NCBI GenBank assembly: GCA_027858735.1
Contig: JAQICC010000266.1
Span: 1 to 62,326, forward strand
Length of the DNA: 62,326 nt
Source of the DNA: Salinivirgaceae bacterium
GTDB lineage: Bacteria > Bacteroidota > Bacteroidia > Bacteroidales > SZUA-534
Reading direction: 5' to 3'
A program made the position numbers and the translations under genes. Shown piece by piece: positions 2,903 to 44,355 of this stretch (position 1 is its first letter; every line of letters starts with the position of its first letter). The notes under the pieces were generated by a model. The model was not told the DNA's origin. It did no database searches and worked only from the letters and a program-made list of their open reading frames with translations.

Positions 2903-5437
2903 ATGATAAAGTCTTTTTTTATAGTAATATTATTGTTAGCTAATGCTACAAGTCAATTAACTGCACAAAGTCATAAAATATTATCGGAACGCCACCTTGG
3001 TTCTGACGGGCAGGAAGGAATTGAAACCTATGCATTAATTAAAAGTGTTTTAGGTCCCAACCCTATTGAAGCACCGGATTTATATTCTGACAATCATCCT
3101 GATGTTAAACACATTATTGAAGAAAACGATTCCATTGTAGGCAATCATTTTACCTTTTTAATTCACCGCGATATTGATAAAGATAGAGATACTGACAACA
3201 CAGATAGACAGCGTAATGAAATAAAAGCATATAGTGGTTCCGATGATGAACTAAAAGCTTTTTCCGGTGAATCGCTACGTTACCATTGGTATTTTCAGCT
3301 TGAAAAAAATTTTTCCATATCAAATAACTTTAGCCACTTTTTTCAGTTAAAAGCTGTAGGTGGTAGCTATTCAAGTCAACCAGTTGTTACTATTAGTGGT
3401 AGTATAAACAGTAGTAAACAGCAATTTGAAATTATACATAGCCGATTAACCGGTAGCGAAGATGAGCAATTGGCAAATACTAATTGGGACAGGGCAAATA
3501 CCGGAGAATGGATGGAGATTGAAGTATTAGCTACCTACAAAGATAGCGGATACCTGAAAGTTTCCATAACCAACCTTAACGGTGACACCATATTATCAAC
3601 CGAAAACAAAAAAATTGATATGTGGCGTGAAGGCAGTGAATTTGTTCGTCCAAAATGGGGGATTTACCGAAGTTTATCCACCAAACAGTTTTTAAATGAG
3701 GATGAAGAACGGGCACGTTTTGCCAATTTTACGGTGCAAAAAGTAATTTTAAATTACATTCCAACTCCTCCTTATGCGGCAATCAATCCGTACCCTTTAA
3801 ACAATGGTGAATATATTGATACGGCTTTTACTTTTAATTGGATAACCGGCACAAATACCACTTATAGTAAATTATTTTTGGGGAAATCAAATGAATTGAA
3901 CCTTAGCAATTTAGTTGATAGCACCTTTAATTCGATGCTTAGCATTGATGCTTTAGTGCCTAATACCAATTATTATTGGAGAGTTGATGTTGTGAATGAA
4001 GATGGTATAACAAAAGGGGAACTTTGGCACTTTAAAACTGCACCCAAAGCTACAAACTGCAGCGAGTCTAATATTCTAGCCATCAATGAAGTAAATGCAT
4101 CTACAGAATTAACCGAATATCCGAAAATAAGCATTACCGATAATAATTTGGAAACAGGTTGGGGTTTTGCTGGTGAACAGCAATGGATTGAACTAAACCT
4201 AGGCATTGAGGCTAACTTAAGTTATTTAATGCTTGCATTTTACCAAGGCGATGAGCGCTACCATAATTTTGAAATTCATGCCTCTTCCGATCAGGTAAAC
4301 TATAGCACCTTGGCAACCTACAGAAGTTTTGGTATAAGTTTAAACTTACAAAAAGTGCTTGTACCGGAAACAAGTGCTCAATTTATTCGCTTTGTAAGTA
4401 CTGATACTTTTAGTACTGCTGAACCACTTGTTATGGAAATGTATGCCTTTGGCTGTGGTGGACAAATTGACAAACCAACCCATTCTGAACTAATTTACCC
4501 CGAACAAAATGCCGAAAATATAGCAACAAGCATAATCTTAAGTTGGAATGCGGGCATTGGTGCCAAAAGTCATAAACTATATTTAGGTACTAATGAAACG
4601 TTAACTGATAACGATTTAGCAAGTGAAACAAACAACACTTTTTTTGATATTAAAGACCTTAACCCCAAACAAACCTACTATTGGCGTGTTGACGAGCTAA
4701 ATGAAGCAGGTACTACTACCGGAGAAATATGGAGTTTTACCACTACCTATGAAATTACCGAGTTGCTTATTCAGGAAAATGAAGCAGGATTTATTTCGCT
4801 TGACGGTACTATAGAAAACACACACACAGGCTACACAGGAGATGGCTACGCAGACAGTAATGATGAATCGGGTGCAAGTATTTCATGGAAAGCTATTGCT
4901 GTTGATAATACTTATATGCTTAAATGGAATTATGCCAATGCAAGTTCAAGTAATGCAAGTGCCTTTGTGAAAATAAACGATAAGGCAGTCGGAATTATAA
5001 ATTTTGTACTAACCGAAAACTGGAATACTTGGGCTCTTGATTCAGTAAACGTATCGCTGGTTGAAGGTGAAAACACCATTACATTAAGTGCACTTGGTTC
5101 TGCCGGTTTAGCAAATATTGATTACCTACTTATTCGTGGAGAAAATATTACGTCAGTAACTCCGGTGGATTTAAATATCACAACACGCTCACTCATAAAT
5201 CCTTACCCCAACCCATGTACAAGCATACTTAACATTGCACATAATGGGCTAAACAACAGCAATGCGCAAATTGAGATATATGACCTTTCTGGAAAAATAA
5301 TGTATAATAAAAATGTTACGACCGGCACTGTTAAAAATGAAATATCAATAAACATTAACCACCTTGAGAAGGGCTTGTATATAATATTTGTAAAAACTGC
5401 AGAGCAAAGTGTTAGCAGAAAATTTATAAAAAAATAA
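2903..5437 (+). CDS. T9SS-secreted putative beta-jelly-roll polysaccharide lyase (PF14099/heparin-lyase-I-like) + Fn3-like + F5/8C (CBM32) + Fn3-like + CBM35/CBM6-like + T9SS CTD
   Basis: signal peptide; DRQRNEIK, HFFQLKAVGG, RPKWGIYRSL; two YYWRVD repeats; TGYTGDGY..WNYANAS..GENTITL..NIDYL module; YPNP..GLYIIFV tail. Confidence 0.65.
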   Translation: MIKSFFIVILLLANATSQLTAQSHKILSERHLGSDGQEGIETYALIKSVLGPNPIEAPDLYSDNHPDVKHIIEENDSIVGNHFTFLIHRDIDKDRDTDNTDRQRNEIKAYSGSDDELKAFSGESLRYHWYFQLEKNFSISNNFSHFFQLKAVGGSYSSQPVVTISGSINSSKQQFEIIHSRLTGSEDEQLANTNWDRANTGEWMEIEVLATYKDSGYLKVSITNLNGDTILSTENKKIDMWREGSEFVRPKWGIYRSLSTKQFLNEDEERARFANFTVQKVILNYIPTPPYAAINPYPLNNGEYIDTAFTFNWITGTNTTYSKLFLGKSNELNLSNLVDSTFNSMLSIDALVPNTNYYWRVDVVNEDGITKGELWHFKTAPKATNCSESNILAINEVNASTELTEYPKISITDNNLETGWGFAGEQQWIELNLGIEANLSYLMLAFYQGDERYHNFEIHASSDQVNYSTLATYRSFGISLNLQKVLVPETSAQFIRFVSTDTFSTAEPLVMEMYAFGCGGQIDKPTHSELIYPEQNAENIATSIILSWNAGIGAKSHKLYLGTNETLTDNDLASETNNTFFDIKDLNPKQTYYWRVDELNEAGTTTGEIWSFTTTYEITELLIQENEAGFISLDGTIENTHTGYTGDGYADSNDESGASISWKAIAVDNTYMLKWNYANASSSNASAFVKINDKAVGIINFVLTENWNTWALDSVNVSLVEGENTITLSALGSAGLANIDYLLIRGENITSVTPVDLNITTRSLINPYPNPCTSILNIAHNGLNNSNAQIEIYDLSGKIMYNKNVTTGTVKNEISININHLEKGLYIIFVKTAEQSVSRKFIKK

Positions 5438-10967: not shown

Positions 10968-13169
10968 TTATAATTTATTGAACAGTTTCGAGGTACGCTG
11001 ATTCTCACCATTTATAATAAGAATGTAGCTACCAGTTTTAAGTGACCTTACATCAATGGTATTTTGATTTTTATTAGCTTTTGTAGTAAACATGGTTTTT
11101 CCTAACATATCAAAAACCATAACTTGAACAGGTGCTTCCGATAAACCTGAAATAGTTACATAACTATCGCTACTTGAATTAGGATACAAACTAATTTCAT
11201 TTGCAATATCTCTGGTTACACTAACCATCCCGTTTTTAAGCCCATCGCAAGGCGAGGTAGCAGAAGTACTGAAATAAATGGTGTAAGCTCCCGTTTTTTC
11301 GGCTAGTACAAAGTTATCGCCATCCATTATGGCATAGTAATCGCCATCAAAACCTGAGAAAACACTACCTGATATCGAAATTTCAGGCTGGCTGCTATTC
11401 AATGTATGCGTTACGGCACCCAACATACTTACATACCAATTTGGAACACCGTTATCGGTATTAAAGGCAAATGTATATAAGCCATTGTTTTCAAGACTCC
11501 AGTTTATACTGAACTTTCTTATGTTGCCTAAGTCCGGTCCATTATCTGATACAAAAATATTGCTATACGAAGTATTTATTGTTGGCAAAGCCGATGTCAT
11601 TGGTGCAAAATTGCAATCATCGTTACCACCATCACTTGTTACTGTTACAGCACAATTATCGGTTTTGTTGCCATCGGCAGTTGTTACCGATATTGTAGTA
11701 CTACCCGCACTAACAGCTGTTATTAAACCTGAACTATTTACTGTAGCTACAGCAGTATTGTTTGAACTGTATGATACTGTTTGGTTTGTAGCATCTGAAG
11801 GCGATACCGTAACTGAAAGCGACTGTGTTTCACCTACAAGAAGCGATACCGAAGAAGGACTTAAACTAACTGCGGTAACAGGAACTGTAGTAGCTTCACC
11901 TTCAACAATCTCAAGCTCGGTAAAACTTACCCAGTCACCAGTATAACCTGTTGCTCCAGTAACAGTTAATTCTAAATATCTACCACTTGTTGCTGTAAAA
12001 GAATGTTCAATAGGCTGATCTGCAGCAGTTCCTGACTGATCTACTACAGTTGTAAAACCACTTGAAGGAGAATCAGAAATACCAATTGTATAATGATAAG
12101 ACCTGTCTTGATACGTCCATACTTTTGTTCCGGTTATCGATTTTGTTTCACCATAATCAATTACTACCGATTTTGGAAATCCATTTGCACTCCAACGTGA
12201 AGCATCATCGGGGTTGCCATCAAATAAATTTTCGCCAACATTTGGATCTTGTTCAGCATCAACAGATTCAACAGTAATAGTAGACTGATCGACATCTCCA
12301 CCACCGGGGTAACCTATGCGTGAGGTGGAAACAATGATGTCGTCAAAATACGCATACTCGTCTTTTTGGGGCTGAAATGTTTCATCAGTTCCACCAAAAA
12401 AGGTCGATAAATAAATGATATTCATTTTAATATCACCTTCACCGGGTTGTCTATAATCACCATGATCGGTAATGTCAATCGCCAACTTACCGTCTAGCCA
12501 ACCACGCATAATACCGTCGTTTTGACCTGGTGTATTAAGCTTATAATATAATTCCACATGATTCCATGCACCCTTTTTAAACTTAACTTGATCGGGCTGA
12601 GGTTGTCCATCGGGTTCGTCATTAGGATTTATAAGACTCCAGTTAATTGATGCCTTAAAATCTTCACGTGAGGGTTCTGTGTTATAATGTACATAATATT
12701 CAACCAATCCATTATAACGCCACATTAGGCGAAGAGACATATTTCTGTCTTCGGTTTGGTAGGCTAATCCAGGTAATTTACCACCTGCTCTAAATTCGAA
12801 ATTTGCAGGAAAGTAAATCGAGTAACTCATATAAAGTTCATCGTGCTCCTGTCCATCCTGAAAAGTAACCTTTGTGTGCATACCACTATTGGCAGTTTTT
12901 ACGCCACCTTTCGGGTATTTTACATCAAGCACATTACCATGTCCAGAAGCACTAGAAATATACACACGTCCTTCGTCCGCTCCATTGCAAAATTTCACAT
13001 CAAGCCCCTCTTTTACGGCATCTTCATCATACTGTCCTGTGCTTAGGTTGTTAAAATCGAACTTGTGCACGTCCTGTGCAAAGCTATTGGTGCTAGTTGT
13101 AAATATTGCAACGGCAATAAATAACAGAACACCTATGTATTTAGTATTTATTTTATCGAAATATCTCAT
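10968..13169 (-). CDS. T9SS-secreted PL14-family polysaccharide lyase + F5/8C (CBM32) + Big_2 + unclassified module + T9SS CTD
   Basis: VKYPKG, FEFRAGGKLPGL, MRGWLDG, YLSTFFGG typical of PL14; DASRWSA F5/8C; VPVTAVSL Big_2; LYPN..GSYILII tail. Confidence 0.8.
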   Translation of the reverse strand: MRYFDKINTKYIGVLLFIAVAIFTTSTNSFAQDVHKFDFNNLSTGQYDEDAVKEGLDVKFCNGADEGRVYISSASGHGNVLDVKYPKGGVKTANSGMHTKVTFQDGQEHDELYMSYSIYFPANFEFRAGGKLPGLAYQTEDRNMSLRLMWRYNGLVEYYVHYNTEPSREDFKASINWSLINPNDEPDGQPQPDQVKFKKGAWNHVELYYKLNTPGQNDGIMRGWLDGKLAIDITDHGDYRQPGEGDIKMNIIYLSTFFGGTDETFQPQKDEYAYFDDIIVSTSRIGYPGGGDVDQSTITVESVDAEQDPNVGENLFDGNPDDASRWSANGFPKSVVIDYGETKSITGTKVWTYQDRSYHYTIGISDSPSSGFTTVVDQSGTAADQPIEHSFTATSGRYLELTVTGATGYTGDWVSFTELEIVEGEATTVPVTAVSLSPSSVSLLVGETQSLSVTVSPSDATNQTVSYSSNNTAVATVNSSGLITAVSAGSTTISVTTADGNKTDNCAVTVTSDGGNDDCNFAPMTSALPTINTSYSNIFVSDNGPDLGNIRKFSINWSLENNGLYTFAFNTDNGVPNWYVSMLGAVTHTLNSSQPEISISGSVFSGFDGDYYAIMDGDNFVLAEKTGAYTIYFSTSATSPCDGLKNGMVSVTRDIANEISLYPNSSSDSYVTISGLSEAPVQVMVFDMLGKTMFTTKANKNQNTIDVRSLKTGSYILIINGENQRTSKLFNKL

Positions 13170-13237: not shown

Positions 13238-16200
13238 TTACAACTTGTTGAAGAATTTTGATGTCCGCTTACTCTCACCTTTTATAATTAGGATATAAGT
13301 GCCTGCTTTTAGCATGCTAACGTCAATCTGATTCATATCGCTATTAACATTCTCAATAAGCATTGTTTTACCAAGTATATCGCTAACAATAACTTGAACA
13401 TTTGCTTCATCTAGTCCTGCAATGTTTAAGTAATCCTGGCTAACAGGATTTGGATAGATTGAAACAGCACTTAGTTCACTGTTTTCAATTCCTGATGCTG
13501 ATTTAAACGAATCGCAATCAGGAGCTGTACTGCTAGTACTAAAGTAAATTGAATATGAACCAGATTTCTCTGCCAGCACAAAGTTATTGCCATCCATTAT
13601 AGCATAATAATCGCCATCGAAGCCTGAAAATCCGCTACCCGAAACTGATAGTTCTGGTTGGCTGCTATTCAGATTATGGCTTACTGCTCCAAGCATGTTA
13701 ACATACCAGTCTGGAGATCCATTTTCTGTATTAAATGCAAAGGTATATAAGCCATTATTAGTAAGGTTCCAGTTGATACTAAACTTTCTAATATTGCTTA
13801 GATCAGGACCATTATCAGATACAAATATATTGCTATAGTCAGTATTTAATGTTGGTAATGCTGAGGCCATTGGTTCATAATTACAACTAGTTCCACCATC
13901 ATCAATTGTAACATTCACAGCACAATTGTCGGTTTTGCTACCATCGGCAGTAGTTACAGTAATTGTTGCACTACCTGCACTTACTGCAGAAATAACCCCT
14001 GAACTATTTACTGTAGCTACAGTTGTATTGTTTGAACTGTATGATACTGTTTGGTTTGTAGCATCTGAAGGCGATACCGTAACTAAAAGCGACTGTGTTT
14101 CACCTACAAGAAGCGATACCGAAGAAGGACTTAAACTAACTGCGGTAACAGGAACTGTAGTAGCTTCACCTTCAACAATCTCAAGCTCGGTAATACTTAC
14201 CCAGTCACCAGTATAATCTGTTGCTCCTGTAACAGTTAATTCTAAATATCTACCACTTGTTGCTGTAAAAGAATGTTTAATTGGTTGAGTTGGAGCAGTG
14301 CCCGATTGATCAACTACAGTTGCAAATCCACTTGCAGGTGAACTAGAAATTCCAATTGTATAGTGGTAAGATCTGTCTTGATACGTCCACACTTTAGTTC
14401 CGGTAATCGATTTTGTTTCACCATAATCAATTACTACCGATTTAGGAAAACCGTTTGCACTCCAACGCGATGCATCATCAGTGTTACCGTCGAATAAGTT
14501 TTCGGCCACATTTGGTGATTGCTCTGCATCAACAGATTCAACAGTAATAGGATCAACTGTACCCGTTTGTTTCGTAAAGCTTATATCTTCTAAGTTGAAG
14601 CTACTACCATCCATGTAAACACGCATTACCTGCTGGCCTCCACTTAGGTTCACATCAGAAATTGTAATGGTATAATATGTACCCCAGGCACCTGTATTGT
14701 TTACCGTTTGAACACCCGTTTTGTCTACGCCGCCAAACTCAATATGGAATTTACCATTGGCAGTTGCAGAAGCTACGTCTACATCGATATCGTAAGTTCC
14801 TGCTTCAACATTAACAGTATACTCAACCCATTCGCCGGTTGATATCCAACCGATATTGTTGGTACCTAAATCTACATCTTCATCCTGACGAGGACCACTA
14901 CCTGCATTTCCTGCAGAAGCATCGTAGTAAGCTACATTTTGCCCACCATTATCATAATTTATTGATGCGATAGTTCCAGGGATAGCGTGAGGTACACCGC
15001 TTGGGTAAGGGGTTTGATCTGTTGGTGTTGGAGTAACGGTAACATTACATGTTGCGGTTTTATCACCATCATCAGTTGTTACTGTTATTACAGTACTACC
15101 CGCATTTACAGCTGTAACAAGCCCTGAACTGTTTACGGTTGCTACAGAAGTATTACTTGAAGTCCACGATACACTTTTGTTTGATGCATTCGATGGAGCT
15201 ATTGTAGCATTCAGATCCAGAGTTGCACCTTCGACTAAGGTTGCAGTGGTTTGACTCATAGATACGCCTGTTACAGGTACAATTGTAACGCCGCCTTCAA
15301 GTGGATTGGTATAAATACCAGACATCATTGTACGCGCAAATACATCAAATAAGTAATCGAAATAACCTACTGGAGGAGTTGCTACTATTTCTTCGTAGTA
15401 TGTGTCAAATTCAGCTTGTAATGTTAGTGTTACACCTGCACAAGCAAAATTACTTACGAAAGTATTGTTATGATAACGATCGCCAGCAATAAGGTCGCCA
15501 TTTTGTTGGTAACCATCTTTTACATTTTGTATACCATTAATTGTGTTTTGAACAAAATTGTTGGTTTTGTCGAGGTAACTTTTTGCACGCGTATCTCCAA
15601 ACCAAATATAATCGGTAGCAATACGCCATGGTGTTCTGCTGGCATCATAAGAGTAATTTAATGATTTACCGCTAGCCTCAGTACCATCAGCTTTACACCA
15701 GTCGGATACAAGACCACCTACAGCATTATTCTCATCCAGATTATTGTCGATAATAACATAACATTTATCAACAACACTATTCCAGAAAGCCTCGTCGTTT
15801 GTAAATTGACCGAATAGCTTATAAGTTCCTGTCGCAAAGTATGAAATGTTTGTAACATCACTTCCACCAAATGCATCGCCTGGTTTTAGCACGTAAGTAC
15901 CACTTTCCACCTCGTACTGCTTAATTAGAGCAATCATATCTTTCGCATCGTTCGCATAATCCACCGAACCAGAACTGCCAAATACTTTGTCGGCAATTAT
16001 TAGAGCCATGGCTGCATCTTGATCAGAGTCGGTAGCTCCATTTTGCTCCAATACAGTATTACAACCTTCAGTATGCCAATGCATAAATCCATTACCATTA
16101 GGGAAAGCTTTGTAATAGTTCCAAAGTCCATCAAAATGTGTTTGATCGTTAAAGTAAGCTGCTAAAATCATTCCATAAGCGATACCTTCAGAAACAGTCT

Positions 16201-17803
16201 CGTCCGGAGACTCCCACGAATTAGCTGACAATCCCCAGCGAATACGACCTTTACCATCACCGCAATCTTCATAAAATTTATCGATGAAAGTTGCATAAGC
16301 AGCTTCGGCATCAGACGCATTTGCATTAGCAGGAACAATACCATAAGCATAAGGACTTTCAATGGATACAGCATCTTCTACTGTAAAGTTTACGCCTGTA
16401 GAAGTAGTTGTTGCACCTTCATTATCTGTTGCTTTTGCAGTAACAGTATAAGTGCCATTTGCAACGTTATTCTTTGTGTAATTATATACTTCTGAGTCAT
16501 CTTCACCGATTTTTGTTCCATCTAAATAGAACTCAACCTTAGTTACGGTACCATCGGAATCGGTAGCATTTGCTGTAAATGTAATGTTACTTCCTGTTAC
16601 AAAAACGTCGTTGTAATCGGGAGATGCAATGCTTACTGAAGGCGCACGGTTTGTAAGTTCTCCACCGTCGCAGGAAACAATATTCCATGATGGACATTCG
16701 TATGTAATTTCATCAGAATAATAATTAACTGGCTCAGGAGAATCTGGCACACGCGTATTATCCCAATAATGGGTTTCTAACGGATCGCCTTGCTTAAAGC
16801 GTACTCCTGGAATATCATCATTCCCAGAGCCCATATTATACACATTATTAAAAATGGCATTTCTATAGCCTGTATTATCGTCAGTACCTCTATCTAAAAT
16901 ATCAATACCTGCAGCTAAAATAGAAGACCCATCCACATTAAATGTATTGTTGTATATAAAAGCATAAACACCTTTTAAATCAATAAAAGCATCAGCGCTA
17001 TTTTCACCTGAAATACCGTCTGCTGAGAATTCACAATCACGAATAATTATGTTCTTAGTTCCTTCTTTTATATCAGCTCCTTCGGCACTAACATTAGGTC
17101 CAACCTTACAATTTTGAATGGTGTTATCAAAGCAGTAAGGATTATAGTCTGTTGAATTTGGATCGGTTGTGTGCTGACCTTTGTCGGAACCAATGTAAAA
17201 ACCTTCACCATAGTTTGGTTGTATTACGCCTGAATTAAAAATTTCGCAATTATCAACTAAATTATTGCTTGAGCCATCACGTAAGTGAATACCTTCATCA
17301 CCAATGTTATGCACTAATACATTGTTTATTTCGCAGTAACTTGATCTGTCAAGCACCAAACCTTTCGAACCTTCTGTGATTACAAGGTCTTTAATAATCC
17401 AGTAATCACCAAAAATACGCATGGTGTAACCATTATAATCACCAACTGGCCCTTGTAAAATTGGACGACTTGATGAACTGGCACCTCTTACAATGATGGG
17501 GTCAGACGAATTCCCATCACCCATACCAACATATCGAGCCCATTTTCCGCGATTATCAGGAGCCTCGGTTTTCTTTGTTGCGGTATACGTACCTGTTGCA
17601 ATAATAATTTCATCACCAGGTTCTGCATTTGCCATGGCATAAAGAATTTGATCGGCTGTATTGCAATAAATTGTTCCGTGAGTGCCCTGCGGCGATTGAG
17701 CATTTAAATTAAACACAAAACCCATAAAAAGCAATGCTAAAACAATTATGCGTTGCCCAATACTGAGTTTACAAAAAGATTTTTGATTTTTAGTTTTTTT
17801 CAT
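13238..17803 (-). CDS. T9SS-secreted multimodular enzyme: PL31-like beta-helix lyase + Ig + GH8 + Big_2 + CBM6 + F5/8C + Big_2 + unclassified module + T9SS CTD
   Basis: GEGFYIGSDK, GPNVSAEGADIKEGT, AFIDLKG (PL31-like); TVSEGIAYGM, ATDSDQDAAMAL, YDASRTPWRI (GH8); YDNGGQ..WISTGEWVEYTV (CBM6). Confidence 0.8.
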   Translation of the reverse strand: MKKTKNQKSFCKLSIGQRIIVLALLFMGFVFNLNAQSPQGTHGTIYCNTADQILYAMANAEPGDEIIIATGTYTATKKTEAPDNRGKWARYVGMGDGNSSDPIIVRGASSSSRPILQGPVGDYNGYTMRIFGDYWIIKDLVITEGSKGLVLDRSSYCEINNVLVHNIGDEGIHLRDGSSNNLVDNCEIFNSGVIQPNYGEGFYIGSDKGQHTTDPNSTDYNPYCFDNTIQNCKVGPNVSAEGADIKEGTKNIIIRDCEFSADGISGENSADAFIDLKGVYAFIYNNTFNVDGSSILAAGIDILDRGTDDNTGYRNAIFNNVYNMGSGNDDIPGVRFKQGDPLETHYWDNTRVPDSPEPVNYYSDEITYECPSWNIVSCDGGELTNRAPSVSIASPDYNDVFVTGSNITFTANATDSDGTVTKVEFYLDGTKIGEDDSEVYNYTKNNVANGTYTVTAKATDNEGATTTSTGVNFTVEDAVSIESPYAYGIVPANANASDAEAAYATFIDKFYEDCGDGKGRIRWGLSANSWESPDETVSEGIAYGMILAAYFNDQTHFDGLWNYYKAFPNGNGFMHWHTEGCNTVLEQNGATDSDQDAAMALIIADKVFGSSGSVDYANDAKDMIALIKQYEVESGTYVLKPGDAFGGSDVTNISYFATGTYKLFGQFTNDEAFWNSVVDKCYVIIDNNLDENNAVGGLVSDWCKADGTEASGKSLNYSYDASRTPWRIATDYIWFGDTRAKSYLDKTNNFVQNTINGIQNVKDGYQQNGDLIAGDRYHNNTFVSNFACAGVTLTLQAEFDTYYEEIVATPPVGYFDYLFDVFARTMMSGIYTNPLEGGVTIVPVTGVSMSQTTATLVEGATLDLNATIAPSNASNKSVSWTSSNTSVATVNSSGLVTAVNAGSTVITVTTDDGDKTATCNVTVTPTPTDQTPYPSGVPHAIPGTIASINYDNGGQNVAYYDASAGNAGSGPRQDEDVDLGTNNIGWISTGEWVEYTVNVEAGTYDIDVDVASATANGKFHIEFGGVDKTGVQTVNNTGAWGTYYTITISDVNLSGGQQVMRVYMDGSSFNLEDISFTKQTGTVDPITVESVDAEQSPNVAENLFDGNTDDASRWSANGFPKSVVIDYGETKSITGTKVWTYQDRSYHYTIGISSSPASGFATVVDQSGTAPTQPIKHSFTATSGRYLELTVTGATDYTGDWVSITELEIVEGEATTVPVTAVSLSPSSVSLLVGETQSLLVTVSPSDATNQTVSYSSNNTTVATVNSSGVISAVSAGSATITVTTADGSKTDNCAVNVTIDDGGTSCNYEPMASALPTLNTDYSNIFVSDNGPDLSNIRKFSINWNLTNNGLYTFAFNTENGSPDWYVNMLGAVSHNLNSSQPELSVSGSGFSGFDGDYYAIMDGNNFVLAEKSGSYSIYFSTSSTAPDCDSFKSASGIENSELSAVSIYPNPVSQDYLNIAGLDEANVQVIVSDILGKTMLIENVNSDMNQIDVSMLKAGTYILIIKGESKRTSKFFNKL

Positions 17804-18022
17804 CTTATTAAGAATTTATTTAGTTATAGTTAGTAATTACATTGGTTTAATTGTAAAAACAACCATTCATAAAAAGATTATACTGTAAAGTATTCAAAAA
17901 CTCCCCTATCCGATCCCACTATTTTTTACCCTTTAAAAAAAACACCCTTTATGTGGTTTACACAAACTTATGCATTTATGTCACCTGTAAACGCTAATCA
18001 GGCTTTCTAAAAATCGTAAATA

Positions 18023-18051
18023 AGTCCCAAATTATGCCACATTTGTTTCAC
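18023..18051 (-). promoter_or_regulatory. tandem half-site motif upstream of the PL31-GH8 gene
   Basis: AGTCCCAA (18023) and TGTTTCAC (18044), 21 bp apart; -7 box TAAGTTTG on - strand at 17970-17963, same offset as at receptor 1. Confidence 0.45.
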
Positions 18052-18226
18052 CAAAACATATCAAAATCGTCGCAATATTATTACATACGGCTGTTTAGTA
18101 GTGCGTTATACCAAATCAAGGACTTCCATTATTCAAAGTGTTAATTATACAACATGAAATAGTTGATTAATAAAAGCACCGCTTTTTATCTAAATTTGAA
18201 AATAAAATCAAAAAAATATTTGCACA

Positions 18227-19408
18227 ATGAATTATAATTCGATACAAAAATCACTTCTATGTACTTTCATTCTATTTTTGTTTTTTTCAATAATAACAAA
18301 AGGTCAAAACTATAAGCAAAACACAATTGAAGTTTTAACCGAGAATGTATTAACAGAGGCTGCGAAAAACTTAAATGAAAAACCCATAACAATAACTTCT
18401 TATACCTGCGATAGAAGTGCTGGATCTAAAAATGATTTTTACTCTGAGGGCGATTACTGGTGGCCAAATCCTAATGATATAAATGGCCCATATATTCGCA
18501 AGGATGGCTTAACAAATCCGGATAATTTTACAGAACACCGCAAAGCCATGCTCCGCTTAAGTATTATTGTAGGTAATTTAACATCGGCCTACCTAATTAC
18601 AAAAGATACAAGTTATGTTAGCGCAGCTAAAACGCATTTGAAAGCCTGGTTTATTAGCGATAGTACCCAAATGAATCCTAACCTATTATATGCTCAGGCT
18701 ATAAAAGGCCGACATACCGGACGAGGCATTGGTATTATTGATGCTATACATTTAATTGAAGTAGTGAAATCGGTAATGATTTTTGATAATAATTCTTTAA
18801 TTTCAGAGCAAGAATTAGCAAATATTAACAATTGGTTTACAGAATTCACCCTATGGCTAAGCACTCATAAATACGGACTAGATGAGATGGTACATCCCAA
18901 CAACCATGGTACATGTTGGAATATGCAAGTAGCTATGTTTGCTAAATTCACACAAAACGATACAATTCTAAATTTCTGCCGAGAAAATTTCAAAAACAAA
19001 TTAATGCCTAATCAAATGGCTACAAATGGCAGCTTTCCATTGGAATTAAAACGCACAAAACCTTATGGTTATTCACTTTTTAACCTCGATGCCATGGTTA
19101 TGAATTGTATGATACTTTCCGACGAACAAAATGACCTATGGAATTTCGAATTAGCAGATGGTAGAAGTATTCAAAAAGCTATTGCTTATATGGCACCTTA
19201 TGTAAAAGATAAAACCAGCTGGCCTTTAGAACCTGACGTTATGTATTGGGAAAACTGGCCCGTTGCTCAACCTGCATTTATATTTGGTGCCCTAAAGTTC
19301 AATAATGAATTGTGGTTTGAATTGTGGAAAAATAACAAACATAGCCTAGAAGTTGAAGAGGTTTTAAGAAATGTACCGATTCGTAATCCTTTGCTTTGGT
19401 TGGAATAA
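18227..19408 (+). CDS. alginate/glucuronan lyase family protein (PF05426 alpha-toroid, PL38-like), Sec signal only
   Basis: DFYSEGDYWWPNP..PYIRKDG..NP, MNPNLLYAQ, GRGIGIID, NNHGTCW, TKPYGYSLFNL. Confidence 0.8.
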   Translation: MNYNSIQKSLLCTFILFLFFSIITKGQNYKQNTIEVLTENVLTEAAKNLNEKPITITSYTCDRSAGSKNDFYSEGDYWWPNPNDINGPYIRKDGLTNPDNFTEHRKAMLRLSIIVGNLTSAYLITKDTSYVSAAKTHLKAWFISDSTQMNPNLLYAQAIKGRHTGRGIGIIDAIHLIEVVKSVMIFDNNSLISEQELANINNWFTEFTLWLSTHKYGLDEMVHPNNHGTCWNMQVAMFAKFTQNDTILNFCRENFKNKLMPNQMATNGSFPLELKRTKPYGYSLFNLDAMVMNCMILSDEQNDLWNFELADGRSIQKAIAYMAPYVKDKTSWPLEPDVMYWENWPVAQPAFIFGALKFNNELWFELWKNNKHSLEVEEVLRNVPIRNPLLWLE

Positions 19409-19600: not shown

Positions 19601-20797
19601 TTAGTTTATTAATTCCAGATTCTTTTTTCTTAACAATGCCTCTAAAAAGTAATAATCGGCATATATTATAGGACAATCAATTTCTGAATTACTCGGCCAA
19701 TTACCTGTTGAATGTTCCAACAAGAAGTGGTGTGGTGCATCATTTGCTGCAAAATAACTATCAGAACTTAAAGTGTTTAGCATTTCATCTGCCATATCTT
19801 TATAAAACACGGCATTATTTTTTGTGTGGGTACTTAATTCATATAAGGCTGAACAAATTACTGCAGCTGCTGAAGCATCGCGTGGTTCGTCAGGAATATT
19901 TGGTGCATTAAAGTCCCAATAAGGAATTAAATCGTCAGGCAAATTCGGATGGTTTAATATGAATGCTGCAATTTCTTCAGCTTGCACTAAATATTTTTCA
20001 TCACTAGTTTCTCGATACATTAAGGTGTATCCATAAAGCCCCCATGCTTGCCCACGAGCCCAAGAAGTTTCATCACCGTATCCCTGATGGGTTTGTTTAT
20101 TTATAGCATTACCTGTAATTGTATCGTAGTTTACAACATGATAGGTGCTAAAATCGGCTCTAAAATGATTTTTCATGGTTGTATTGGCATGCGAAACCGC
20201 AATATTATAGTAAGTGGAATCACCTGTTTCATGAAAAGCCCAAAAAATAAGTTCAAGGTTCATCATATTATCAATAATAACAGGAAATTGCCATTGATCT
20301 TCGTGATGATCCCAAGAACGAATACAACCAACGGTAGGATTAAAACGTGTGATTAAAGTTTTTGCACTTTGCAGCAGAACTTCTTTGTAAGTCTGATTCT
20401 TTGTAAGTCTATATCCATTGCCATAGCTGCAATAAACTTTAAAACCCATATCGTGTGTCACACTATTCAGTTTTTCCTTTTCCAATATCTCAGTACGATT
20501 TTGAGCTTCGGTCTTAAAAATAGAGTCGCCACTTAGCTCATACATATACCAAAGTGCTCCTGGGTAGAATCCCGAAGTCCAATCACCGGAGGCTACTGAT
20601 CGTAACTCGCCATTTTTTTCGATATTACGTGGATTTTCTTGCTTATTCGTATAAGCTTCTATACCGGTTTTATATTTTTTAACAACCTTAGTAATTATTG
20701 TAATATTATTGGTATTGATTGATGTATTTGAGCACGAAAGCATTACCAATAATATAGAAACAAAACTTACTCTATAAGCAATTTGAGATATTTTCAT
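19601..20797 (-). CDS. GH88 unsaturated glucuronyl hydrolase, lipoprotein
   Basis: lipobox MLSC; DWTSGFYPG, HDMGF, VIIDNMMNLE, SWARGQAWG, RDASAAAV, YADYYFLEAL. Confidence 0.92.
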   Translation of the reverse strand: MKISQIAYRVSFVSILLVMLSCSNTSINTNNITIITKVVKKYKTGIEAYTNKQENPRNIEKNGELRSVASGDWTSGFYPGALWYMYELSGDSIFKTEAQNRTEILEKEKLNSVTHDMGFKVYCSYGNGYRLTKNQTYKEVLLQSAKTLITRFNPTVGCIRSWDHHEDQWQFPVIIDNMMNLELIFWAFHETGDSTYYNIAVSHANTTMKNHFRADFSTYHVVNYDTITGNAINKQTHQGYGDETSWARGQAWGLYGYTLMYRETSDEKYLVQAEEIAAFILNHPNLPDDLIPYWDFNAPNIPDEPRDASAAAVICSALYELSTHTKNNAVFYKDMADEMLNTLSSDSYFAANDAPHHFLLEHSTGNWPSNSEIDCPIIYADYYFLEALLRKKNLELIN

Positions 20798-41913: not shown

Positions 41914-44355
41914 TTATAATTCTACCTTTAAAAAAGTTGCTTTCACCTTAGCCGATTTTACACTAATTATGGCATTCCCCTTTTTAAGTATTATTTTCAT
42001 AAATGCTCGACCATTGTACAATTGAATTTTTCGTGAACCGTCCCATGTTCCCAAATCATCAATAAGCTCGGCATTTCCTGCAGTTTCAAATTCAACCATT
42101 TCCTTTGAATCGGCACAATACACGCCATTTTTATCATAAACTTTAGCACAAACAGTAAGAACGTTTCCTTCGCGTAAAACCTCCTCTATTTTCAGTTCAC
42201 TTTCCGCTCCCCATTCTGCTGTTTGATACACTTGTGTAATTTCATCAACCACTTCAACTTTACCTTGCTTTGCTATAACTTTTAAATGGTTTTCACCTTC
42301 TTTAAATTGCACTTTCCAACGTAAACCGGCAGCAGGATAATCTTGAGAATTTCTAGTTCTTTTACCTAAACTTTCACCATTGAAAAATAACTCAGCTTCG
42401 CTACAATTTGAATATACCTTAATCAATTTATCCTCCCCTTTTTTACCCCATCGCGTTTCCCAAGTATGGCCATAAATATGAGCCATAGGTTTGCTTGTCC
42501 AATACGACTGAAATACATAATACGATTCTTTAGGAGTAAGATCGCGTTGCACCACGCCTTTTTGATTTACATAAGGCACCGGATTTTCAGGACGCAATGG
42601 AGTAGAAAAATCTTTAAAAGGCCAGTAAGCAGTTCCTGTAAGCCACTCCATGTTTTCCTGTTCCTTCAAATGCCAGTCTATTAGATTACAGGCATAAGTT
42701 TCAGACCAATCGCCATCTTTCGAAACACGAGGATCGCCACCTGACATCAGGAAATCACCAGCACGCTCATCAGCATCACCTTCAATAATAGATACTAAAC
42801 CTTTGTCGGGATTTTCAGAATGACGCCCAGCATGGTGACTGGCTCCCCACTCAACATGCAGAAAGTGATCAACGTCCATGGCTTCTTCATAACTCACTTC
42901 TTGATATTTGGTAAATTTACCCCGATACCAACCTGCCCAAATGGAAGGTGAGTACACATCAATAATATCTTTACAGAAATTGCAACGACGAATAGCCGTA
43001 AGGCGTTCGGGATCTTTCTTGTGTGACAAGTCGTTTAATTCTGACATAAAGCCTCTGATTTTCTCCTCATCAAATTCGGTAAAATCACCAGGCCAATCGT
43101 TCTCATTACCCAAGCCCCAAACCAATACAGAAACATGGTTTTGATGCTGATCAATCATATTCACCAACATTCGGCGTGCTTGTTCTTTGTATACTTCTCC
43201 ACCTAAACCTCCACGGCACCAGGGGATTTCTTCCCATACAAAAATACCTAATGAATCACACAACTCTAGTACCAAACGTGATTGCTGATAATGACCTAAG
43301 CGGATAAAGTTTATACCAATATCTTTCATCATTTGCATTTCTTGACGAATAAGATTATCGGTCATGGCAGCCGCCATACCAGCATGATCTTCGTGGCGAT
43401 GTGTACCTCGTAATAAAAGACGTTTGCCGTTTACCATTAAAGGTCCTTTTTTAATAAACTCAGTATGGTTAAAACCAACTTTTTGCGTTGTATTATGTGT
43501 TTGACCGTTTACGGTTACACTTACATTTAATGTATATAAATAAGGATTTTCGGGATGCCATAATACGGGTTTGCTAAGGCTTAGCTTTGCAATTTCAAGC
43601 TCACCCTTCCATGTTTTTTTGCTTGTATTATATTTACTAACTACCTTACCTTGTGCATCACTAATTGTTAATTCAAGTTGAGCGTCTGCTATTGAAGGCA
43701 TTTCATTTTTTAATACTGCACTTATTACAATATCAACCTTTTTAAAGTTCTCATCAAGCTTATAGTTAAACTGAACTTGTTCAAGTGAAACGGGTGGCAA
43801 ATACACCAAATTTACATGACGATATAATCCTCCATAAACATTAAAATCGCTTAAGTCTGACGGTATCATCTCAGCATCGCGCGAATTGTCGCAGCGTATA
43901 GCAATGGGTATTAATGAATCTGCCAAAGAAGAGCTTTGCTTGTATTCCTGAATGGCATCGCTTATGTCAATGCTAAATTCATCGTATCCACCAACATGAG
44001 ATCCTATTTTCTTTGTAAGCAAGTAAATATCAGTCTTTTGTCCAGCACCTTCAAAATGCAATATGGTTCTACCATTTTCGTAAGGATTAGTAATTGCAAT
44101 ATGGTTTCGATACCAACCAGGTCCTTGATAATAGGCAACATCGGGATCAACCGCATCAAAAGCATTAAAACAATGGGGCATATTAACAGGGACCCACACA
44201 GGCAATTTACTCTGACTTTCCGGTCGAAATGCCTCCCATGGCGATCCTAGATCACCTTTCACATAATCCCATCCGTTTGTTAAGCGTGTGCTTTTTTGAG
44301 CCATTACATTAAAACTCAAAAAGCTTATTATTAATCCTAAAAATAGTTTATTCAT
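41914..44355 (-). CDS. GH2 glycoside hydrolase (beta-galactosidase/beta-glucuronidase clan), Sec signal only
   Basis: LHFEGAG, HVGGYDEF, YGGLYRHV, GTHRHED, RLGHY, WEEIPW, WGLGNE (acid/base), HVEWG (nucleophile). Confidence 0.92.
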   Translation of the reverse strand: MNKLFLGLIISFLSFNVMAQKSTRLTNGWDYVKGDLGSPWEAFRPESQSKLPVWVPVNMPHCFNAFDAVDPDVAYYQGPGWYRNHIAITNPYENGRTILHFEGAGQKTDIYLLTKKIGSHVGGYDEFSIDISDAIQEYKQSSSLADSLIPIAIRCDNSRDAEMIPSDLSDFNVYGGLYRHVNLVYLPPVSLEQVQFNYKLDENFKKVDIVISAVLKNEMPSIADAQLELTISDAQGKVVSKYNTSKKTWKGELEIAKLSLSKPVLWHPENPYLYTLNVSVTVNGQTHNTTQKVGFNHTEFIKKGPLMVNGKRLLLRGTHRHEDHAGMAAAMTDNLIRQEMQMMKDIGINFIRLGHYQQSRLVLELCDSLGIFVWEEIPWCRGGLGGEVYKEQARRMLVNMIDQHQNHVSVLVWGLGNENDWPGDFTEFDEEKIRGFMSELNDLSHKKDPERLTAIRRCNFCKDIIDVYSPSIWAGWYRGKFTKYQEVSYEEAMDVDHFLHVEWGASHHAGRHSENPDKGLVSIIEGDADERAGDFLMSGGDPRVSKDGDWSETYACNLIDWHLKEQENMEWLTGTAYWPFKDFSTPLRPENPVPYVNQKGVVQRDLTPKESYYVFQSYWTSKPMAHIYGHTWETRWGKKGEDKLIKVYSNCSEAELFFNGESLGKRTRNSQDYPAAGLRWKVQFKEGENHLKVIAKQGKVEVVDEITQVYQTAEWGAESELKIEEVLREGNVLTVCAKVYDKNGVYCADSKEMVEFETAGNAELIDDLGTWDGSRKIQLYNGRAFMKIILKKGNAIISVKSAKVKATFLKVEL

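Follow-up and report, generated by a model that had tools for sequence, protein, structure and literature searches.

The gene for P0001, a predicted protein of 1521 amino acids (aa), lies on the minus strand of a 62,326-nucleotide stretch of DNA from a Salinivirgaceae bacterium (contig JAQICC010000266.1), referred to here as the window. P0001 is likely to be a two-headed secreted enzyme in which a PL31 polyuronate lyase and a GH8 beta-1,4-glucanase act on interleaved cell wall polymers, as judged from sequence, a structural model and analogy with characterized enzymes. An initial annotation of the window had proposed that one open reading frame (ORF) joins PL31-like and GH8 domains into a bifunctional enzyme for a wall of polyuronate and beta-glucan, or else for a mixed Glc/GlcA chain such as partly oxidized cellulose. 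The ORF is indeed intact and carries both domains, and with the catalytic residues kept, dual attack on a polyuronate and a beta-1,4-glucan remains the best reading, the evidence speaking neither for nor against the mixed chain; the principle is not novel, as GH5+PL31 enzymes precede it. What is new here is the GH8 partner of PL31, the lyase-cellulase principle being known from the GH5+PL31 proteins. The main additions made by this analysis are evidence for convergent fusion, a reconstruction of how the fusion was assembled and a gene context that leans towards glucuronan.

Domain architecture and predicted catalytic heads

From its N-terminus, P0001 consists of a signal peptide, PL31, Big_7, GH8, Big_2, a CBM6/35-type module, CBM32, a second Big_2, a UKD domain and a type IX secretion system (T9SS) C-terminal sorting domain (CTD). 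The features are as follows.

13238..17803, minus: whole gene, intact ORF of 1521 aa (ATG 17801-17803, TAA 13238-13240)
17699..17803, minus: signal peptide, aa 1-35 (...FNLNA, followed by QSP), read by eye from the sequence
16664..17692, minus: PL31 polysaccharide-lyase beta-helix, aa 38-380 (PDB 6KFN, E = 1.9e-47)
17195-17197, minus: predicted PL31 catalytic Tyr203
17066-17068, minus: predicted PL31 catalytic Lys246
16394..16642, minus: Big_7 Ig-like domain, aa 388-470 (Pfam PF17957, E = 2.9e-18, match 388-456)
15296..16372, minus: GH8 endo-beta-1,4-glucanase domain, aa 478-836 (PF01270, E = 1e-44, match 534-817)
16187-16189, minus: GH8 Glu539
16028-16030, minus: GH8 Asp592
15644-15646, minus: GH8 Asp720
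15041..15277, minus: Big_2 domain a, aa 843-921 (PF02368)
14600..14986, minus: CBM6/CBM35-type module, aa 940-1068 (PF18099, CBM_35_2, E = 2.5e-8, match 982-1065)
14174..14566, minus: CBM32 (F5/8 type C) module, aa 1080-1210 (PF00754 / PF22633, E = 5.5e-9, match 1087-1207)
13913..14155, minus: Big_2 domain b, aa 1217-1297 (second PF02368 stretch; aligns to the Big_2 of an 803-aa Labilibaculum filiforme protein)
13502..13882, minus: UKD domain, aa 1308-1434, Cys to Cys (PDB 9KVN, E = 7.4e-30, aa 1310-1429)
13241..13459, minus: T9SS type A C-terminal sorting domain, aa 1449-1521 (PF18962, E = 2.5e-10; TIGR04183, E = 1.9e-10)

The annotated extents of the PL31 and GH8 domains agree with these to within about 30 nt. 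The annotated CBM32 is present and, in a PDB search, matches the CBM32 of AlyQ (7D29, E = 1.3e-11). The module annotated as CBM6 is also there; by Pfam it scores as CBM_35_2 / CBM6 superfamily, and its PDB matches are CBM6 entries (2Y8K and 5G56 at 1e-16, 1W9S at 3e-10). Domains beyond that list are Big_7, the two Big_2 copies (Pfam E = 8.4e-35), the UKD and the sorting domain. The N-terminus has a basic start, then a hydrophobic core and then A-Q, by inspection of the sequence and not by a predictor. At the other end, PF18962 (40.9 bits, match 1449-1516) and TIGR04183 (40.6 bits) both exceed their cut-offs. With a type A CTD and an N-terminal signal peptide, P0001 is predicted T9SS cargo.

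Pfam has no PL31 model, and P0001 receives from it only a generic Beta_helix match (aa 148-307), whose 24.7 bits fall short of the cut-off of 25.9. In the PDB, aa 36-383 match a single sequence, PsAly, an alginate lyase of PL31 from Paenibacillus sp. FPU-7 (6KFN, E = 1.9e-47). Unlike P0001, PsAly is a catalytic chain on its own and short, with 307 residues in its PDB entry. AlphaFold2, supplied with an eight-sequence alignment, models aa 38-380 as a right-handed beta-helix (pLDDT 86.4, pTM 0.89). Foldseek placed 6KFN first for this model (E = 7.8e-20, TM-score 0.91 on the target, root mean square deviation 2.8 A; 33% identity in the structural alignment), with PL6 lyases as runners-up, weaker by 13 orders of magnitude at E of about 1e-6. 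For PsAly, Tyr184 and Lys221 have been proposed as the catalytic pair (PMC11890756), and they sit in GEGIYVGS and IDIKEGT in the 6KFN alignment; aligned with them are Y203 of P0001 in GEGFYIGS and K246 in ADIKEGT.

To Aly31 of CelAly (P0041), the GH5_2+PL31 enzyme of Aquimarina sp. 2-A2 (Xu et al., ISME J 2026; PMC13235733), the domain is 56% identical, or 58.6% over 415 residues when the following Big_7 is included. Y203 and K246 align with CelAly Y501 and K538 (published residue numbers, equal to P0041 numbering + 2), and the Y501A substitution wholly abolished the alginate lyase activity of CelAly (PMC13235733). Across eight PL31 domains that are 46-72% identical to P0001, the Tyr and Lys equivalents are invariant, as are about 90 alignment columns that include the entire GEGxYxGSD and DxKE motifs. 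By similarity, modelled fold and the predicted catalytic Tyr/Lys pair, the N-terminal domain of P0001 is assigned to PL31.

The GH8 domain scores 153.5 bits on PF01270 (cut-off 24). Its best PDB match is the endoglucanase CelA of Clostridium thermocellum (1CEM/1KWF; E = 4.4e-73), to which it is about 50% identical over 303 residues, and it is 52% identical to a GH8 of the cellulolytic Cytophaga hutchinsonii; the similarity to both extends across the whole catalytic domain. Other PDB GH8 enzymes score far lower, chitosanases at about 1e-24 and xylanases at about 1e-8 to 1e-14. The TVSEG, ATDxD and YxYDAxR motifs of 1CEM align with those of P0001, so that CelA Glu95, Asp152 and Asp278 correspond to E539 (TVSEG), D592 (ATDSD) and D720 (YSYDASR). 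Guerin and colleagues (2002) reportedly assigned these CelA residues the roles of acid (Glu95), substrate distortion (Asp152) and base (Asp278). At about 50% identity to 1CEM, the P0001 domain would be expected to form an (alpha/alpha)6 barrel. Unlike the cellulosomal CelA with its single catalytic domain, it is an internal module of a lyase. With both sets of residues in place, both heads are probably active.

We picture the working of P0001 as follows. The protein would be exported by Sec and then by the T9SS, and finish either as a secreted protein or anchored on the cell surface. Its PL31 head would cleave a beta-1,4-linked polyuronate by beta-elimination via Tyr203 and Lys246, leaving 4,5-unsaturated chain ends, and its GH8 head would hydrolyse a beta-1,4-glucan (cellulose or mixed-linkage glucan) with inversion, Glu539 acting as acid and Asp720 as base. 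The CBM6/35 and CBM32 modules, the Ig-like domains and a dual-binding UKD may keep the enzyme on an insoluble wall of interleaved polymers, where removal of one polymer would expose the other. A GH88 enzyme and a beta-glucuronidase-like GH2 enzyme encoded in the window could then finish the oligomers, and KduI, whose gene lies elsewhere in the genome, could pass the products into 2-keto-3-deoxygluconate metabolism. We infer the two activities, their synergy and the identities of the substrates in this scheme from the features described above. P0001 is a candidate single enzyme for the saccharification of seaweed or oxidized cellulose.

Relation to known lyase-cellulase enzymes

CelAly is described as a 'brown algal cell wall polysaccharide-degrading' modular enzyme with the order signal peptide, GH5_2, Big_7, PL31, Big_7, UKD, T9SS sorting domain (PMC13235733). 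It is both a cellulase and an alginate lyase for polymannuronate (polyM) and polyMG, and it digests Laminaria walls; its UKD (PDB 9KVN) has affinity for insoluble cellulose as well as for alginate, and UKD and Big_7 bind alginate gels (PMC13235733). Like P0001, CelAly is one T9SS-secreted polypeptide that couples a PL31 lyase to an endo-beta-1,4-glucanase, with the same PL31 Tyr/Lys pair, a Big_7 directly after PL31 (B2 of CelAly, the counterpart of the P0001 Big_7) and a UKD, 49% identical between the two proteins, before the sorting domain. Because CelAly has been shown to be bifunctional and the accessory kit is common to both, dual attack by P0001 is supported by analogy, yet it is not a new principle.

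The two enzymes differ in their glucanase, which is GH5_2 (retaining, TIM barrel) in CelAly and GH8 (predicted inverting, alpha/alpha barrel) in P0001, where a Pfam scan found no PF00150. They also differ in order: GH5_2 is N-terminal to PL31 in CelAly, whereas in P0001 PL31 comes first and GH8 is internal and C-terminal to it. P0001 has additional Big_2, CBM6/35 and CBM32 modules, and its PL31 domain belongs to a separate clade. In contrast to what is usual in carriers of CelAly-type enzymes, its genome is without PL6, PL7, PL15 and PL17, and its locus has the GH88 and GH2 genes.

Two further enzymes, as cited in PMC13235733, combine the kinds of activity predicted for P0001: ClGP of Cellulophaga lytica, an endoglucanase and alginate/glucuronan lyase (Lisov et al., 2022), and CelA of Cellulophaga sp. 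RHA 52, an endoglucanase and alginate lyase (Zhu et al., 2024). By their description they are set apart from P0001 by a GH5+PL31 architecture. Since ClGP is reported to have glucuronan lyase activity too, the PL31 lineage appears able to take both polyuronates; the founding members of the family are endo-beta-1,4-glucuronan lyases of Saccharophagus degradans and Streptomyces hygroscopicus (Helbert et al., 2019; PMC6442616).

A survey across CAZy lists four types of PL+GH fusion, GH5+PL31, PL14+GH9, PL7+GH16+PL6 and PL7+GH16 (PMC13235733), and PL31+GH8 is absent from this list. The searchable literature likewise yielded no description of this pairing, in keeping with the annotation's supposition that it is uncharacterized. 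To be widespread and already characterized is true of the GH5+PL31 class and untrue of the GH8 version, which widens the range of 'two polymers, one enzyme' designs past the four types published in 2026.

Distribution and origin of the fusion

Of 5.8 billion protein clusters searched by a word index, only four matched PL31-Big_7-GH8 at full coverage, P0001 and P0002-P0004, the latter three being 85, 72 and 70% identical to P0001 and stemming from a Logan run assembly, a metagenome-assembled genome (MAG) at NCBI and metaclust. In each of the four fusion proteins the catalytic residues of both heads are intact. GH5+PL31 proteins matched by the dozen (from Aquimarina, Polaribacter and Sungkyunkwania, among others), with coverage limited to the PL31 half. 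When one genome per species was scanned with two PL31 motif patterns, 185,579 species gave 71 loci with these architectures:

1 of 71 loci: PL31-Big_7-GH8 (a Saccharicrinis MAG)
about 40 of 71 loci: GH5-PL31-...-UKD, GH5 being N-terminal
about 13 of 71 loci: PL31-Big_7-UKD-CTD without a GH domain (Zobellia uliginosa, Nonlabens, three Hymenobacter, Labilibaculum filiforme and others)
remainder of the 71 loci: single-domain PL31 forms (Paenibacillus, Clostridia, Cellvibrio)

The two-motif scan did not recover the founding sequences from S. degradans and Streptomyces. The GH5+PL31 architecture is widespread in Flavobacteriaceae. Neither PL31 nor a further fusion was found in 32 other genomes of the family to which the host of P0001 belongs, and the nearest PL31 relatives of P0001 are from Labilibaculum and Saccharicrinis.

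When 1.84 billion cluster representatives were searched with a profile, 487 PL31 relatives turned up at E <= 1e-30, and of the best 150 of these only P0001 carries GH8. Other combinations were met among cluster representatives: P0188 (1284 aa) is PL31-Big_2-GH5-Big_2-CBM32-Big_2-UKD-CTD with an internal GH5, P0207 (1399 aa) has PL31, GH9 and CBM3, and P0150 and P0211 have PL31 with CBM3 alone. These architectures are absent from the published PL+GH survey. PL31 has been joined to three cellulase families (GH5, GH8 and GH9) and to the cellulose-binding CBM3, and this speaks for a genuine functional tie between cellulose and the substrate of the lyase. A PL31 lyase has thus been coupled to a cellulase more than once, with GH5, GH8 and GH9 partners, and such repeated invention is evolutionary evidence that lyase and glucanase gain from being tethered. 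A protein with three catalytic domains also occurs, the 1398-aa GH5-PL31-Big_7-Big_7-UKD-PL14 protein of Aquimarina addita (P0042).

In a maximum-likelihood tree of PL31 domains, those of the four GH8-bearing proteins form one clade with the GH-less L. filiforme domain (SH-aLRT 99), apart from the main clade of GH5 carriers (SH-aLRT 97). Characterized alginate- and glucuronan-specific enzymes are scattered over clades from Firmicutes, Proteobacteria and Bacteroidota, and for this reason the tree yields no call on specificity. The 803-aa L. filiforme protein (L002:9890-12301), the nearest PL31 relative outside the fusions, has no GH8-Big_2-CBM6/35-CBM32 block. It aligns to P0001 aa 20-481 (72% identity) and then to aa 1210-1521 (57%), so that P0001 can be read as this architecture plus an insert of about 730 residues, and the L. 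filiforme protein would represent the state before insertion.

A likely kin of the inserted block is encoded in the same genome. P0001 aa 482-1102 (GH8-Big_2-CBM6/35) are collinear with aa 784-1400 of P0008, at 61% identity over 626 aa; P0008 (contig C102) is a 1731-aa double cellulase with the order GH5-Big_7-GH8-Big_2-CBM35-CBM64-CTD. As the PL31 clades are separate and the GH8-Big_2-CBM block matches the cassette of P0008, the PL31+GH8 fusion arose independently of GH5+PL31. We envisage that an ancestral PL31-Big_7-Big_2-UKD-CTD lyase took up a GH8-Big_2-CBM6/35(-CBM32) block after its Big_7 and ahead of its Big_2. P0001 is thus a rare, independently assembled GH8 variant, CelAly-like in its predicted action and outside the GH5+PL31 type. 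The host specializes in very large multi-catalytic T9SS enzymes; a third GH8 of the same genome lies inside an 1884-aa open frame (contig C262).

The tail of P0001 is shared with its downstream neighbour in the window:

10968..13169, minus: PL14 lyase-CBM32-Big_2-UKD-CTD, 733 aa (PF21294, E = 9e-35)

Over the CBM32-Big_2-UKD-CTD tail, aa 298-733 of this protein and aa 1086-1521 of P0001 are 78.5% identical, and the DNA of 10968-12280 and 13238-14550 is 79.5% identical over 1319 nt. The catalytic heads are unrelated; a common tail on unrelated heads suggests that modules were exchanged or duplicated inside this locus.

Gene context and the nature of the polyuronate

Besides the PL14 lyase, three further genes of the window bear on the identity of the polyuronate:

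18227..19408, plus: PL38-like (alpha/alpha) lyase, 393 aa, divergent neighbour (PF05426, E = 1.6e-79)
19601..20797, minus: GH88 unsaturated glucuronyl hydrolase (UGL), 398 aa (PDB 3WIW, E = 3e-118)
41914..44355, minus: GH2, beta-glucuronidase-like, 813 aa (PDB 6D7J 'Beta-Glucuronidase', E = 0, 1101 bits)

The PL38-like lyase matches PDB 3NFV (E = 3e-55) and BoPL38 (8BDQ, E = 2e-37). The remaining PDB matches of the GH88 enzyme are UGLs at about 1e-52, and a search for its homologues gave 80 loci spread over Bacteroidota, all at <=65% identity. For the GH2 enzyme the second match is 6D1P (E = 1e-292), and solved beta-glucuronidases of gut Bacteroidota are matched almost end to end. Together, GH2 and GH88 suggest a glucuronic acid-containing substrate for the locus. 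A PDB search with the PL14 neighbour gave weak and about equal matches to the alginate-lyase entries 6KCW and 5GMT and a much weaker one to the glucuronan-type vAL-1, and a putative lyase head at 2903-3800 had no match in the PDB. The PL38-like lyase and GH88 genes lie directly upstream of P0001, an arrangement that would be in keeping with a route in which glucuronan is first cut internally and the unsaturated end residues are then taken off.

In the 98.9%-complete genome we found none of PF14592 (PL6), PF07940 (PL15/17-type) and PF08787 (PL7), KdgF and 4-deoxy-L-erythro-5-hexoseulose uronate (DEH) reductase not being included in the search. As controls, the PL31-UKD carriers Zobellia uliginosa and Aquimarina sp. 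SS2-1 were positive for PF08787 and PF07940. Because GH88, the beta-glucuronidase-like GH2, PL14 and the PL38-like lyase are in the window, KduI is in the genome and PL6, PL7, PL15 and PL17 are missing, we lean slightly towards beta-1,4-glucuronan, of green-algal, fungal or bacterial origin, as the polyuronate met by the host of P0001, rather than brown-algal alginate. Beta-1,4-glucuronan, which is found in green algae, fungi and some bacteria, has been little studied, and if it is the target, the brown-alga reading of the whole enzyme class may be too narrow.

With the same mechanism, P0001 could instead share the brown-algal wall target of CelAly, its PL31 head being a polyM/polyMG alginate lyase and its GH8 head clearing embedded cellulose or mixed-linkage glucan; to this we give a substantial chance, somewhat short of even. 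In its favour, and against the account that we prefer, the closest tested PL31 domains, 56-59% identical to that of P0001, are alginate lyases for polyM and polyMG, and the tested relatives CelAly, ClGP and the Cellulophaga CelA all cut alginate (PMC13235733). The best match of the CBM32 is the one in AlyQ, a protein whose name and nearest relatives suggest an alginate lyase, and CelAly UKD and Big_7 hold to alginate gels; CBM32 and UKD both suit alginate no less than glucuronan. Alginate lyases exist in PL14, PL31 and PL38 alike, and glucuronan lyases are included in both PL14 and PL38. Also weighing on that side, the GH88 and GH2 genes are 2 kb and 24 kb off, with a weak motif alone to suggest co-regulation; natural beta-1,4-glucuronan has been reported in small amounts only (PMC12423752); and in its accessible part PMC13235733 mentions no glucuronan test of CelAly. 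For CelAly, too, the synergy of the two heads has been quantified only as far as sequential digestion.

Other evidence speaks against alginate. PL31-(Big_7)-UKD-CTD proteins are encoded by Hymenobacter psychrophilus, H. rubripertinctus and H. lapidiphilus. Hymenobacter is a mostly non-marine genus. With three of its species carrying PL31-UKD, a purely brown-algal role of that combination is hard to reconcile. We know of no role for GH88 or beta-glucuronidase-like GH2 in alginate breakdown: the unsaturated end of alginate has the L-erythro form, and GH88 takes the L-threo form. The genome also has none of PL6, PL7, PL15 and PL17, which are usual in carriers of CelAly-type enzymes.

A narrower version of the glucuronan account, which we regard as unlikely, has both heads working on one beta-1,4-gluco-configured fibre, PL31 as a glucuronan lyase and GH8 as a cellulase. 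The target may then be cellulose microfibrils together with C6-carboxylated (glucuronan) stretches that coat them, co-crystallize with them or are covalently continuous with their chains. If this were true, the window would hold the first bacterial glucuronan/cellulose utilization locus, made up of PL14, PL31-GH8, the PL38-like lyase, GH88 and beta-glucuronidase, and the recurrent fusion of PL31 to GH5, GH8, GH9 or CBM3 would mark 'uronate-decorated cellulose' as a common natural substrate, beyond brown algae.

The remaining alternatives concern the protein itself. The GH8 domain could act on chitosan or xylan, or release xylose from reducing ends, instead of being a cellulase, and the target would then be another composite, such as fungal chitosan plus glucuronan. 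The family does include chitosanases and xylanases, and the PDB chitosanases 7CJU and 1V5C match at 2e-24. Chitosan occurs in the walls of Mucorales. Glucuronan is present in these walls as well (PMC12423752). We nevertheless consider this improbable: the endoglucanase CelA scores 50 orders of magnitude above any chitosanase or xylanase, the closest GH8 homologues are named endoglucanases of cellulolytic Cytophagia, and the cassette is common to P0008, a GH5+GH8+CBM64 cellulase. It is very improbable that only one head is catalytic, whether because the PL31 beta-helix is a polyuronate-binding module or because the GH8 is a decayed binding domain. The sub-threshold Beta_helix score might be taken that way; set against it are the intact catalytic dyads and triads of P0001 and of all four fusion proteins, the roughly 90 invariant PL31 columns with GEGxYxGSD and DxKE whole, and the closeness of the GH8 to active CelA. 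As the genome is a draft of 452 contigs, a chimera of two adjacent genes, made in assembly or gene calling, was also considered. It is hardly credible, with a continuous frame, a folded Big_7 linker domain and the same junction in four clusters of various sources; for two of these the contig is known and belongs to another organism, in one case from a Logan run and in the other from the Saccharicrinis MAG. We rejected assembly as the origin of the fusion because the PL31-Big_7-GH8 order recurs in the three further clusters described above.

The setting of the gene varies among relatives. The 85%-identical orthologue has as neighbours a GH9+CBM3 cellulase, a PF14099 lyase and two PL14 genes, a context that likewise leans towards glucuronan. 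The L. filiforme PL31 gene and the Saccharicrinis PL31-GH8 gene, in settings unlike both this one and the window, stand amid housekeeping genes (nrdD, asparagine synthase and a pyruvate, phosphate dikinase-like gene), with no cluster of carbohydrate-active enzymes. Upstream of P0001, at ~18000-18060 on the minus strand, is the motif GTGAAAC-N14-TTGGGAC, which weakly resembles clearer TTGCAAC-N14-TTGAGAC pairs upstream of units at ~10703 and ~48053. Weak as the match is, it could mark a shared regulator site tying P0001 to the receptor and hybrid two-component system (HTCS) units.

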